Part shown: piece after piece, positions 23,406 to 30,517 of the stretch
Position numbering within the stretch: the stretch's first letter is position 1
Layout of the letters: every line of letters starts with the position of its first letter
Assembly (NCBI GenBank): GCA_964016885.1
Contig: OZ024755.1
Span: 13,454,001-13,518,000, forward strand
Origin: Eledone cirrhosa
Taxonomy: Eukaryota
Direction: 5' to 3'
DNA length: 64,000 bases
Program-made: the position numbers and the translations under genes
The notes under the pieces: model-generated
What the model saw: the letters and a program-made list of their open reading frames with translations, nothing else
Database searches by the model: none
What the model was told of the DNA's origin: nothing

Positions 23406-24001
23406 CCTCTCTCACTATGTATTTGTATGTATGTATATTTATATATAATGTAAATCTATTCTATGTTCGTAAGTATATATATATATATTTATATATATAT
23501 ACCCATTTGCATTGTTGAGGCTTCCAAAACGACCAATTTTATATATATATATATATATATGTAGGTATATATATATATATATATGTATGTATATATATAT
23601 ATATATATATATATATATGTATGTATATATATATATATATGTATATGTATATATATATATATATATATATATGTATGTATATATATATATATATATATAT
23701 GTATATATATATATATATATATGTATATATATATATATATATATGTATATATATATAGTTTTGCGAGGTTTTTTATATGAAATCGTGTGTCGAAACAGAT
23801 ATTGTTATATTTGGGGAGGGTCATATTTGCGTAATATTGCCAGAATTAATAACAGAACACACTCACTGTTTGGTTGGTTTTCGCTTCTCGCTGTCTTTTA
23901 TATATATATATCTGCGATCTAACTTACTCGGTCCTCAATGTTGCCATTGACTGACCGGCGGTCAAAAATAATACAGATACAATATAGACAAACACATATA
24001 T

Positions 24002-24059
24002 ATATAGTTTACATAAATCTTTCGTTGCACATCTGCAACATCGTCAGTGGTGTTATATT
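24002..24059 (-). ncRNA. candidate minimal hammerhead ribozyme (inverted copy)
   Basis: reverse complement of 26123-26180. Confidence 0.7.
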
Positions 24060-24325
24060 CATTGTTCCTCCTGTTGTGTTGTATGTCTACGCCATTTTTT
24101 TTTTGTTCAGTCTGTCTATATATTTATTTATTTATTTATTTGCTTGTTTGTTTATCTTATTTTATTTTGTCTTCTTTGCGCATGCGTTTGCGTGTGTGTA
24201 TAGTGTTATGTGTGATGTGTGACTAGTGTGTATAGAGTTGTGTCTGCTGGGTGACTAGTGTGTGTTTATGTGCTTGTGTATGTATTTATTTATCTTATTT
24301 TATTTAATTTAATTTACTTATTTAT

Positions 24326-26383: not shown

Positions 26384-29300
26384 CTGTTTCGACACACGAT
26401 TTCATATAAAAAACCTCGCAAAACTAATTCATCGCCGCTATGGCATTAGCTTGTGCCAAGCTGAAAGGTTATTGAAAGACACTGTTTTCTGTTATATAAA
26501 AACTACAATAACAACAGAACAAATCCGCTTCTTAAAACACTGTGTTTCCTCCAAAACATACACAACAAACATATCAAAACAAGTAAATAATTTATTACTG
26601 AACAAAACACAAGCTGAACGGCTAAAACACACAATAACAGTTAATATGAAAAGAACAACATACACAAAAGTCAACGCACTCTACAGACAAAAACGCATCA
26701 ACGGTAAGGAAATCCGAAATCTCATCACAGCAAACGAGAGAGATGACTTCATGAGCGTCATCCGACGCGAAACGAAATATGCTCAAAACGAATGCTGTAG
26801 GCATTTCAAGAAGAAATTAGAATGGATGAATAAGAAAAAACTACAAGAAAGGAAAATCGAATATTCTCAAAAATACCCAGATAACATCGACAACATCCGT
26901 ATGAGTGATGTAAAACTACCGGAAGAATTTACCAATGACCACACAGTAAATATCTATGGGAACACTTTAATCAGTGAACAAGAACAACAAATCCTAAAGT
27001 TACCACCAAAATTTGCCATCTACAAAAAGATTAATCCTATGGAATGCAAAACGGAGCTGGAAAAGTGTTTCACAAAAATACGTTGGAATGCAAAGGTAAA
27101 CAACAACAACAATAATAACGGTAGTAGTAATATAAACAATAACTCTGGGTATAGAAATAACAGCCATAACCATAACAATGGCAGGAAAGTGAGAAATAGT
27201 GATAATGGTAATAATACTAGCGATAGACAGAACAACAACAACCACAATAATAATAATAATAGAAACGTTAACCACAGACACAGCAACAGTGACCACAGTA
27301 GTAATAACGGTAACAATACGAACAACAACAACAACAATAACCACAGTGGTAATAATGGAAATAGTACATGTAGCAACATCAACAAAAACAAGAAACATAA
27401 TAATAGTAACAACCACAATGGTAGAAATAGCAGTAACAACAACAACAATAACGGTGAAGTAAACAACAATACATCTAGCAATCATAACAATAATAATATT
27501 AATGCTAAGGATAGAAACAACAACAACCACCATGATAACAATAATAGCAACACACACAACTATGACGATAGAAATAACGACAACCCCTTAGAGAAACTAT
27601 TTTTCAACCCAGCTGACAAAACATATAAGATGGGTAATATCTATCCTACGAGGTTACCCTTTAATAAAAGAGTTTGCATACCACAACAAATAGATGACGA
27701 GACGGAGGCACAGTTCACCATAGCTAGAAATAAGATTAGACAAGTAGTAGACAGGTACACTATGAGACAGAGCAGACCAGAGGCCCAACAACTTGGGATA
27801 AAACCTGTAGAAGGCTTGGTTAGCCTCAAGCAGCGCACAAGGGATGGTGAGGTAGTGTGTCTACCCACAGATAAGTCTGGTAGGATGTCAATAGATAGCA
27901 TGCCGAACTACATCGAGGCAATGCAACCCCACATCACCAACACGAGCGAAGTTGCACAACTAACACACGATGGGAGAGAAAAAACCCTCAACGCTCACAT
28001 GATGATGTGGACTGACATCCTAAAGCCAAGCAGACGCACTGCCAACAACTTCCAGGCGTCTAACAATGGCATACCACCCTTGTATGGGCTCCGCAAAGAC
28101 CACAAGACAGTCGACGACCCGACAATAGGACCACCAACAAGACCTGTATGCGGAGCTAATATAGCTAGCAACTACAGGATCTCCTACTTCCTCTCAATGG
28201 TTATACGCCCCATAATCAAGATGTCCCCAGATGTATGTGAAAGTACAGAGGACCTCCTCAGCGGAATCAGTGAGTGCAACAAAAACAGGAGCCTATCCAA
28301 CTGCATAATAGGCAGCATGGATGTGGTGTCACTGTACCCATCCATTAACATTGATTTTGCTGTGAAAAGATGTGTGGAGATGATCATTGAGAGTGAGGTG
28401 GAGTTCTGCGACGTCGACACAGACGAACTGGGCCTCCTACTTAGACTTACCTACGACACTGACTACCTAGACAGCCATGACCTTAGATGTTTCTGCCCTA
28501 GTAGACCTATAAGAGGTAGACCCCCCACCATAACCTCAATGGCTAAAAAGACTCCCATAGGAAGGTGGATTGGGTGGACCAAAGCTATACGGACCCCCCA
28601 AAACACTGATCAGGTAAGAAAAATGGTCGCACATGCAATAGGGGCTAGTATCAAAACTACCCTAAAGGGCCACATATTTAAGTTCAATGAGAAAATCTAC
28701 ACCCAAAATGAGGGAGCAGCCATCGGCGTCAGCATAGCTGGCGATGTTGCCAACCTTTTCATGGTATGGTGGGAAAGGAGACTTAAAGATCTCCTTAATG
28801 AAAGCTCCATAGACCTCATCATGTACTCTCGTTATGTAGACGATATCAATATAGTTATAAGAACACCCCCACTAGAGAGCACTAACAAGTTTGATTTAGA
28901 ACGTAGCACGATGGAAAGCATCCAGCAGATAGCTAATTCCATACACCAGAGTATAACTGTAACTATAGACTTCCCTTCCAAACACCCTAACAATAGACTA
29001 CCTGTATTAGACACAGAACTCTGGATTAACACTATAGACGAGAGAGCCCAAATTCTCCACTCACACTATGCTAAACCCATGGCCTCCAAATACCTGATAC
29101 TCAAAAACTCAGCAATGTCCAGTAGTGCTAAGTTTAATATTCTGATCGCAGATTTGGTACGAGTGATGAAGAATGTGTCCAGCATGTGCGACCCAACAGA
29201 AATGGAAGGACACATCCAACACTTCATCAACCGCATGCAGTTCTCTGGCTACAACCAAAGAGACAGAGTCAGAGTATACGAAGGAGCCATGGAAAAGTAT

Positions 29301-29990
29301 AAGACCCTCATAGAACTGGACATGAAAGGAATTTGCCCACTATACAGGAGCAAATCATGGAATAGCTTAGATAGGGCTAGACATAAGATAGGGAAGGCCA
29401 CATCATGGTACGACAACCAGAGATATCAGAGTGTCATGTTTGTGGACGCCACCCCTGGAGGGAAATTAGCTAACCAGTGTAGAAAGGCCCTGAGAAAGAC
29501 CCACTTAAAAATAAAGGTGGTAGAAAAGCCAGGAACCACCATAAAATCCCTGATCAGCAAAACCTACCCTTTTAAGAAAACCCACTGTACCAATAGGAAA
29601 TGTATCATATGTAAGGTGAACCCCCGGATAAACTGTAAAACTAGAAACGTAGTCTATAGCATAAGATGCACAGAGGGTACTTGCAGAAACACGACAACAA
29701 CATACATAGGTGAGACAGCTCGTAGCATAGGTGAAAGGATAGACCAACACTGGGGGGAACTAAAAGGACGAAAAAACGGGTCAGTACTATACGAACATGC
29801 TAGACAACATCATGACGGTAACATAGACAACATAGAAATTAGAATAATATCTAAACATAGGAATGACCCAGCAGATAGGCAAATCAGAGAGGCCAGTGAA
29901 ATAGAAATTAGAAGACCAAAGCTAAACAGAAAGAATGAGTGGAACAACAACAACACCCAAACAAACAACACTGACCTAAGAGAAGTATAA
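26358..29990 (+). CDS. Penelope-like reverse transcriptase with C-terminal GIY-YIG endonuclease (1210 aa)
   Basis: PTDKSG, LYGLRKDHK..PTRPV, GSMDVVSLYPSI, QNEGAAIG, YSRYVDD, LPVLD; Cys linker CTNRKCIIC..NC; VVY..YIGETAR..ER..H; R..REA..I..P.LN. Confidence 0.96.
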   Translation: MTLPKYNNICFDTRFHIKNLAKLIHRRYGISLCQAERLLKDTVFCYIKTTITTEQIRFLKHCVSSKTYTTNISKQVNNLLLNKTQAERLKHTITVNMKRTTYTKVNALYRQKRINGKEIRNLITANERDDFMSVIRRETKYAQNECCRHFKKKLEWMNKKKLQERKIEYSQKYPDNIDNIRMSDVKLPEEFTNDHTVNIYGNTLISEQEQQILKLPPKFAIYKKINPMECKTELEKCFTKIRWNAKVNNNNNNNGSSNINNNSGYRNNSHNHNNGRKVRNSDNGNNTSDRQNNNNHNNNNNRNVNHRHSNSDHSSNNGNNTNNNNNNNHSGNNGNSTCSNINKNKKHNNSNNHNGRNSSNNNNNNGEVNNNTSSNHNNNNINAKDRNNNNHHDNNNSNTHNYDDRNNDNPLEKLFFNPADKTYKMGNIYPTRLPFNKRVCIPQQIDDETEAQFTIARNKIRQVVDRYTMRQSRPEAQQLGIKPVEGLVSLKQRTRDGEVVCLPTDKSGRMSIDSMPNYIEAMQPHITNTSEVAQLTHDGREKTLNAHMMMWTDILKPSRRTANNFQASNNGIPPLYGLRKDHKTVDDPTIGPPTRPVCGANIASNYRISYFLSMVIRPIIKMSPDVCESTEDLLSGISECNKNRSLSNCIIGSMDVVSLYPSINIDFAVKRCVEMIIESEVEFCDVDTDELGLLLRLTYDTDYLDSHDLRCFCPSRPIRGRPPTITSMAKKTPIGRWIGWTKAIRTPQNTDQVRKMVAHAIGASIKTTLKGHIFKFNEKIYTQNEGAAIGVSIAGDVANLFMVWWERRLKDLLNESSIDLIMYSRYVDDINIVIRTPPLESTNKFDLERSTMESIQQIANSIHQSITVTIDFPSKHPNNRLPVLDTELWINTIDERAQILHSHYAKPMASKYLILKNSAMSSSAKFNILIADLVRVMKNVSSMCDPTEMEGHIQHFINRMQFSGYNQRDRVRVYEGAMEKYKTLIELDMKGICPLYRSKSWNSLDRARHKIGKATSWYDNQRYQSVMFVDATPGGKLANQCRKALRKTHLKIKVVEKPGTTIKSLISKTYPFKKTHCTNRKCIICKVNPRINCKTRNVVYSIRCTEGTCRNTTTTYIGETARSIGERIDQHWGELKGRKNGSVLYEHARQHHDGNIDNIEIRIISKHRNDPADRQIREASEIEIRRPKLNRKNEWNNNNTQTNNTDLREV

Positions 29991-30517
29991 ATAAATAAGT
30001 AAATTAAATTAAATAAAATAAGATAAATAAATACATACACAAGCACATAAACACACACTAGTCACCCAGCAGACACAACTCTATACACACTAGTCACACA
30101 TCACACATAACACTATACACACACGCAAACGCATGCGCAAAGAAGACAAAATAAAATAAGATAAACAAACAAGCAAATAAATAAATAAATAAATATATAG
30201 ACAGACTGAACAAAAAAAAAATGGCGTAGACATACAACACAACAGGAGGAACAATGAATATAACACCACTGACGATGTTGCAGATGTGCAACGAAAGATT
30301 TATGTAAACTATATATATATGTGTTTGTCTATATTGTATCTGTATTATTTTTGACCGCCGGTCAGTCAATGGCAACATTGAGGACCGAGTAAGTTAGATC
30401 GCAGATATATATATATAAAAGACAGCGAGAAGCGAAAACCAACCAAACAGTGAGTGTGTTCTGTTATTAATTCTGGCAATATTACGCAAATATGACCCTC
30501 CCCAAATATAACAATAT
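29575..30517 (+). repeat. 3' pseudo-LTR
   Basis: direct repeat of 25441-26383, ending in ATGACCCTCCCCAAATATAACAATAT|(AT)n. Confidence 0.95.
30257..30314 (+). ncRNA. candidate minimal hammerhead ribozyme (3' pseudo-LTR copy)
   Basis: identical to 26123-26180. Confidence 0.72.

Follow-up and report, generated by a model that had tools for sequence, protein, structure and literature searches.

Paired short and long ends in a young Penelope-like element family of Eledone cirrhosa, and a long fingers insertion in its reverse transcriptase

How does a retroelement come to lie in a genome as two arms of opposite orientation that both end at its own 3' terminus? This question is raised by a Penelope-like element (PLE) at positions 23756-30517 of a 64,000-nt stretch of Eledone cirrhosa DNA (assembly GCA_964016885.1, contig OZ024755.1, positions 13,454,001 to 13,518,000; hereafter, the window). 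The assembly of tandem and inverted PLE insertions and the way in which PLEs find microsatellites are named as an open question in PMC8557442. Here, we find that the outer ends of such insertions are almost always one of a short and one of a long kind and that their arms share rare alleles, which suggests that one dimeric complex probably copied RNA from both ends of a cut TA array. The least expected result is that the element belongs to a lineage with a long insertion in the fingers of its reverse transcriptase (RT).

Based on self-alignment, the insertion consists of an antisense arm joined bluntly, at 25440/25441, to a sense stretch (25441-30517) of one partial and one full unit. The direct repeat, or pseudo-long terminal repeat (pseudo-LTR), is identical at 943/943 nt between 25441-26383 and 29575-30517, with a period of 4,134 nt. 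The inverted arm (23756-25440; 1,685 nt) is identical to the middle copy over 986/986 nt, up to 26426, and to the right copy over 1,642/1,642 nt, so that it exceeds the right end by 43 nt; numbered with the ATG of the open reading frame (ORF; 26358) as +1, the right end lies at +26 and the left end at +69. Both outer ends run into (TA)n, in arrays at 23540-23757 and 30514-31983, and because TA is common to element and flank, the break point is ambiguous by 4 nt on the right and 2 nt on the left. The original prediction had described three identical copies of the terminal region, two outer junctions at (TA)n, and a 43-nt excess of the inverted arm, and all of its coordinates proved exact; it had also called the insertion very recent, which is supported. 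All overlaps are 100% identical, and the ORF is intact. The insertion is a real, intact, and very young PLE copy with the following features.

23540-23755, no strand: left half of the (TA)n target array, with TG-unit interruptions of the same type as in the right flank
23756-25440, minus strand: inverted 5'-truncated arm of 1,685 nt, unit positions +2519 to +69, carrying the long end
23756-23798, minus strand: one-sided tail of 43 nt, covering positions +27 to +69 counted from the ATG; such a tail is known from PMC8557442 and PMC11167929
24005-24047, minus strand: hammerhead-like motif, arm copy
25441-26383, plus strand: pseudo-LTR, upstream partial unit of 943 nt, joined bluntly to the arm
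26135-26177, plus strand: hammerhead-like motif of minimal type I, with the core, a bulged base, and a stem II of 6 bp; cleavage putative
26358-29990, plus strand: intact ORF of 1,210 amino acids (aa), with N-terminal domain, RT, Cys linker, and GIY-YIG endonuclease
27090-27593, plus strand: Asn-rich segment, 82 of 168 residues Asn
28425-28667, plus strand: conserved RT fingers insertion between RT3(A) and RT4(B), adding ~72 aa, predicted to be folded
29583-29723, plus strand: short C-x4-CxxC linker and GIY-YIG core with CCHH cysteines, from a by-eye comparison with Fig. S2 of PMC8557442
29575-30517, plus strand: terminal repeat of the full unit, stopping at +26 (short end), with a hammerhead-like motif at 30269-30311
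30518-31983, no strand: right half of the (TA)n target array

Further (TA)n arrays, degenerate and very long, lie at window positions 3911-6068, 16252-22468, 34015-35886, and 57564-64000, and about a quarter of the window is TA-like. The structure had been singled out as remarkable; it is exactly as described but typical rather than exceptional, because its layout and one-sided tail belong to the published features of PLEs, which comprise partial tandems, inverted arms, one-sided tails of 30-40 bp, and a TA bias (PMC8557442; for the tail also PMC11167929).

The window copy is one of a very young and numerous PLE family. With a 400-aa RT query, 104/104 scored hits were ~100% identical, and with an 81-aa query from the insertion, 150/150 hits were identical, all on two contigs, among 8,507 candidates. 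Arms longer than 1 kb (n = 124) lie a median of 0.10% away from the commonest base, a figure biased by the choice of loci, and 35 of the 43 ORFs that cover start to stop are in frame, two of these with internal deletions. The longest arms reach at least 13.6 kb, above three units; one insertion (L138-L140, G000:C6:30042693-30071487) has a 13.6-kb arm and, if the pieces are continuous, a ~13-kb arm, with several near-identical units per side. The same genome, of 3.0 Gb, also carries Neptune-type, Nematis-type (L189), and Hydra-type PLEs (L179-L205), some with long open frames; the Hydra-type elements account for 126 pattern matches.

To describe the ends of the family, we mapped 89 fetched regions and the window (first sample), in which 149 of 168 element ends could be called exactly and 19 could not; a second sample of 44 further stretches was studied after the pairing rule described below had been fixed in writing. 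When the ends and flanks of these genomic copies were tabulated, 145/149 exactly called ends of the first and 66/69 ends of the second sample lay in TA tracts, which is beyond chance given a TA background of 15% in the fetched flanks and 26% in the window. Both flanks have the same type of interruption in 15/16 informative loci, arguing that the TA arrays pre-date the insertion; on the same ground, we rejected the idea that the element makes the TA tracts. No target-site duplication is readable within (TA)n. The long end sits on the longer arm in only 30/55 pairs of the first and 15/25 of the second sample, and the arms are therefore not nested. The proposal that a TA array already in place was cut and that two cDNAs were primed, one from each side of the cut, is thus supported.

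The 149 exactly called ends cluster in two windows, +18 to +26 and about +67 to +85, with main positions at +26 (64 ends), +69 (22), and +84 (31), each of which follows TA. At least 2 nt of TA are common to end and flank at 126/149 ends and none at 20/149; where nothing is common, the flank mostly starts with T, which suggests a TA^TA cut. Only one young end (L105) falls in the 5-nt TA run at +47 to +51, with two ends of diverged copies nearby, and a sister family of different sequence has the same two end positions in three small fold-backs. The ends without TA, the near-empty run, and the like ends of the sister family argue that the end window is set by position and not by TA, while a short pairing with UA likely sets the exact base; of the TA microhomology originally proposed, the local bias stood, while its role in placing the ends did not. 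The sister family (L019:3308-3384, L074:5132-5205, L085:9456-9529, L023, L094, L123, and L247) has nothing but the ORF start (85%) and a hammerhead that covaries in common with this family, and its small fold-backs, too, join a short to a long end inside (TA)n. Several very short long-ended arms (67-136 nt; L088, L086, L100, L121, L017, L019, L242, and L233) start immediately downstream of a TATA-like tract within the repeat, possibly close to a transcription start.

Short and long ends are paired within insertions. In the first sample, 55/60 two-armed insertions, the window included, combine a short with a long end compared with 50% expected (p = 9e-14), the exceptions being three short+short pairs and two that involve a middle end. 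In the second sample, where one-armed stretches and those with truncated ends were left unscored, the combination was found in 25/25 scorable pairs. All three missing ends (3/3) in that sample were the long partners of short ends, and 10/12 of its single-armed insertions carry the short end. Accordingly, the two priming events cannot be independent, as they had been taken to be.

The arms of an insertion also share rare alleles. Non-majority alleles occur in both arms 81 times and in one arm 44 times in the first sample (65%; permuted mean, 2.3%; maximum, 11%), and 47 and 28 times, respectively, in the second (63%; permuted mean, 7.7%; maximum, 23%); in the window, an allele known from 1/87 loci occurs in all three copies. 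Between tandem units within one arm, non-majority alleles were common 31 times and different 17 times. Because short and long ends pair and rare alleles are common to the arms, we suggest that the two halves were likely copied jointly, from a single source. At the centre of the insertions, blunt or overlapping joints (n = 37) have a mean overlap of 2.35 nt compared with 0.63 nt expected; 14 other joints carry inserts, several of them short tandem re-copies, and 4 were not called. The microhomology and the short re-copied inserts would fit end-joining of two cDNA ends, for which polymerase theta may be a candidate. Short tandem re-copies at the joints of L075+L076, L099, L112, L124+L125, and L141 look like templated end-joining.

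We consider it probable that one dimeric complex cut both strands of the (TA)n array and used each of the two DNA ends to copy RNA, one from a fixed short and the other from a fixed long site. Under this model, a double-strand cut would fall mostly at TA^TA, and the primer would pair over 2-4 nt with UA in the RNA, thereby choosing the exact base inside each start window. One cDNA would start per RNA site, one DNA end receiving the short and the other the long start, and both arms would be templated by one RNA molecule, or by RNAs that share a source locus, before the two cDNA 3' ends were joined, either by templated end-joining or via microhomology. An arm that exceeds one unit may stem from a circular or multi-unit RNA; a circular RNA template for PLEs was proposed in PMC4209133. 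The complex would be a dimer with two active sites, which we infer by analogy with another PLE, for which a dimer is predicted and two start sites were seen in vitro (PMC11167929).

Alternatively, a coupled protein pair could prime both ends on two separate RNAs from one active source locus. This would account for the allele sharing, would spare one RT from displacing the cDNA of the other, and fits with the arms differing at 44/125 and 28/75 informative sites; however, by itself it leaves the constant short and long pairing unexplained, and the skewed spectrum of alleles found in both arms hints at changes on a common template, making this alternative rather unlikely. It is very unlikely that priming happened once and that the second arm was then copied from the first by self-priming or fold-back, perhaps with an antisense template, a route put forward in PMC3846280. 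Such copying predicts identical arms and common RT errors, the T>C excess included, and some centre joints are indeed near-palindromic (L090, L060, and L118). It also predicts nesting, however, while only 45/80 pairs have the tail on their longer arm, the short arm of the window is a continuous 1,685 nt ending at +69 that is not contained in the long arm, and most centre joints link unrelated unit positions. Still less credible is that TA microhomology places the ends and the two priming events are independent: the TA shared with the flank (at least 2 nt in 126/149 ends) and the position of +26, +69, and +84 after TA speak for it, whereas the 20/149 ends without TA, the single young end in the TA run at +47 to +51, and the near-absence of short+short and long+long pairs speak against it. 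Finally, we see hardly any chance that the identity of the arms or the whole structure arose later, via gene conversion or during assembly and polishing. Inverted repeats are able to convert, and the locus has no spanning long read, but there are 85 two-armed insertions, each with its own break points; opposite-strand joints at other positions also occur in raw reads of a further sample with the same species label (mostly one start each, a weak signal); and conversion would not produce the short and long rule.

Several observations weigh against copying of both arms by one complex. Five of the 60 first-sample pairs do not combine a short and a long end; among these, L071 and L026 contain pieces that are old and diverged, L068 is a block that has been duplicated, and L099 and L105 are unexplained. 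The short+short insertion at L099:5704-9207 has a near-identical degenerate TA pattern on both outer flanks and is possibly a palindromic duplication. The 44 and 28 alleles present in one arm only fit later mutation or RT error, and the shared alleles fit one RNA, two RNAs of one source locus, or later gene conversion alike. Among locus-private alleles, 11/16 in both arms are A>G or T>C compared with 3/31 in one arm (post hoc, p = 6e-5), where private means private among ~90 sampled loci of probably many hundreds; seven of those in both arms are sense-strand T>C, the commonest change, which editing of the sense RNA does not explain, and the spectrum fits no model well. Moreover, loci were picked by likeness to the window RT, which biases arm length and age, and the basis is assembled DNA.

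The ORF is uninterrupted over 1,210 aa and encodes an RT, a Cys linker, and, at its C-terminus, a GIY-YIG domain; its Asn-rich segment differs in length in 3-nt steps in 39/40 measurable copies. GIY-YIG and CCHH are present, with Y1100, C1104, Y1116, and G1118 invariant and C1109, R1127, H1131, and H1147 nearly invariant across 19 aligned rows. A Pfam search of the ORF returned 0 families, a sequence search of the PDB only weak matches to bacterial RTs, and an Atlas search with the protein clusters that are unnamed or carry a PLE-domain label; because Pfam misses the RT altogether, the lineage is easily overlooked. The structural model has a predicted local distance difference test score (pLDDT) of 89.8, and the top 14 structural matches are all telomerases (best Z, 14.6; root-mean-square deviation, 3.7; 275 aligned). 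By this model, the RT fold is nearest to telomerases, and the element has a single ORF with a telomerase-related RT, as in endonuclease-containing (EN+) PLEs. The fingers insertion (pLDDT 79-98 in the model) has the same position as the insertion in the fingers domain (IFD) of telomerases, for which the fold searches gave overall ranges only; modelled by itself, it reached a pLDDT of 34, too low for use. Among 64 rows, 14 of its positions are at least 80% conserved.

The closest protein, from Octopus vulgaris, is 68% identical, and ~85 relatives with 24-68% identity carry an insertion between RT3 and RT4. The distance from RT3 to RT5 is 177 aa in the window RT and 172-186 aa in 76 of 80 measurable relatives (92 examined), compared with 100-107 aa in 105 measurable of 118 Nematis-like proteins and 100-108 aa in 205 measurable Nematis-like and Poseidon-like proteins (118 and 119 examined, respectively). 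In an unrooted RT tree of 39 rows, built with the insertion columns dropped and with Naiad, Coprina, Athena, TERT, and published Nematis type sequences left out, 14 long-insert RTs form their own branch (100/99), apart from the motif-labelled Nematis-like, Neptune, Poseidon, and Hydra rows. A Nematis-like branch of 11 rows (100/98) excludes the window RT, one of the 12 Nematis-like rows, P0206, falling outside its own group; a joint grouping of long-insert RTs and Nematis is not rejected by the approximately unbiased test (p-AU 0.059). Long-insert RTs and Hydra rows lie on one side of a 96/86 split, possibly by long-branch attraction. The phylogeny, which had been suggested as a check, thus separates the window RT from the Poseidon, Neptune, and Nematis-like rows, with the Nematis union left standing and no Naiad row in the tree.

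Affinity to Neptune or Naiad, the clades named earlier for their microsatellite preference, is contradicted by the linker, the RT branch, and the C-terminal endonuclease. Specifically, the spacer to the next Cys is 7 aa compared with ~22 aa in the long CX2-5CxxC linker of Neptune, and four motif-labelled Neptune-type ORFs of the same genome form a separate 100/100 branch; the N-terminal endonuclease of Naiad/Chlamys rules out that group. Penelope/Poseidon, which have no Cys linker, are ruled out by the linker and the separate RT branch, and Hydra, with CCHH absent, a CxCX5C linker, and a divergent RT4, by the CCHH, ordinary RT4, and long insertion found here. The element has the short Cys linker before a C-terminal GIY-YIG domain that is typical of Nematis, and its RT3-RT5 distance of 177 aa departs from the canonical RT3-RT4 spacing of that clade. 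Judged from sequence, the extra conserved RT segment likely marks an undescribed PLE branch; we found no description of a long-insert lineage in the literature searched, which did not cover Repbase, Dfam, Arkhipova 2006, Figures 1 and 8 of PMC8557442, or the supplements of bioRxiv 10.64898/2026.07.22.740005, any of which might already contain such elements.

The hammerhead-like motif lies ~180-220 nt upstream of the ATG in the terminal repeat. Its 6-bp stem II has two compensatory pair changes in the sister family, while stem I is weak; the motif matches the minimal PLE hammerheads of PMC4209133. An Rfam search did not detect a hammerhead, inspection by eye, without a formal test, showed no accumulation of 5' ends either at the hammerhead cut or at any single start site, and no stable fold was found around the RNA start sites (z = -0.12). 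The hammerhead-core pattern has 8 matches in the window compared with 0.43 expected, those outside the element lying at 2886-2903, 32771-32798, 33731-33755, 45795-45810, and 50182-50209.

The element also occurs in reads labelled as other organisms. Run X1 has 2 differences in 6,222 nt from the host DNA of the window. Runs X3 and X5, which bear other organism labels, match the host stretch 42720-52900 via repeats only (~80-95% identity in the pieces listed), while their copies of the element differ from window positions 25500-29560 at 13/2,916 nt and 11/2,909 nt, respectively (~99.6% identity). We draw no conclusion as to horizontal transfer or contamination, because so abundant a family would show at a trace of foreign DNA. 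As a tentative overall picture, possible rather than probable, the element would represent an undescribed, widespread clade with a C-terminal endonuclease and a long, structured insertion at the IFD position; its many near-identical copies would be a record of how PLEs insert, with one RNA, probably a circle, copied by an asymmetric dimer from the two ends of a cut (TA)n, and the family may have crossed octopod species at ~99.6% identity.

This family provides a large young sample with many intact ORFs that bears on the question of tandem and inverted insertions, and it yields sharp predictions for the existing in vitro assay, in which each cut would receive a short start and a long one and both arms would derive from a single source. 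A fingers insertion is treated in PMC8557442 as a mark of PLEs with an N-terminal endonuclease and of telomerases, canonical PLEs being described there as without this insertion domain and IFD-like regions as sporadic in Coprina; a C-terminal-endonuclease lineage with a longer insertion would bear on whether the insertion domain is ancestral or was repeatedly gained. In O. vulgaris, 336 recent Penelope-like insertions were counted, with no clade detail in the part of the report considered (PMC13282606).

The two-armed structure invites comparison with other retroelements. In LINE-1 twin priming, two primers, an inversion, and microhomology at the joint give a 5' inversion with non-overlapping parts; here, in contrast, both arms end at the 3' terminus of the element. 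Canonical EN+ PLEs (Pen2a of A. vaga, PMC3846280; PMC8557442; Penelope of D. virilis, PMC2377424) share with this element the pseudo-LTR tandem, the inverted 5'-truncated arm, the one-sided tail with the ORF start, and the hammerhead-like motif in the repeat; unlike in those, the tail here is 43-60 nt with several long ends, and the counts of pairing and of allele sharing come from 85 insertions. PAc, a Poseidon element of Anolis studied in vitro (PMC11167929), likewise has two RT start sites in the ORF start that bound the tail, cuts and extends both strands of an AT-rich target, and is a predicted dimer. However, PAc belongs to another clade, and its study reports non-homologous priming and no difference in start site between strands, whereas the genomic copies here imply that an insertion uses one short and one long start, with a TA bias of 2-4 nt. 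Nematis (alignments S1, S2, and S7 of PMC8557442) has the same C-terminal GIY-YIG, CCHH, and short Cys linker; the element here, at 22-25% identity, adds ~72 aa between RT3 and RT4 and has DKS and KDHK where three published Nematis rows have DKG or DKR and KTHK. Naiad/Chlamys elements resemble it in the RT fingers insertion, the complex tandem and inverted insertions, and, in Naiads, (TA)n targeting but differ in their N-terminal endonuclease, an insertion of ~20-40 aa, and the absence of canonical hammerheads (PMC8557442). Hydra elements (PMC8557442) share the KDHK and RW motifs and TA targeting, and unlike the element here are <3 kb, with a divergent RT4 and without CCHH and the fingers insertion. 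Finally, as in the Penelope and Poseidon elements of A. vaga (PMC3846280), a long in-frame Asn-rich segment is tolerated in a multiplying element, lying before the RT here and after it there.

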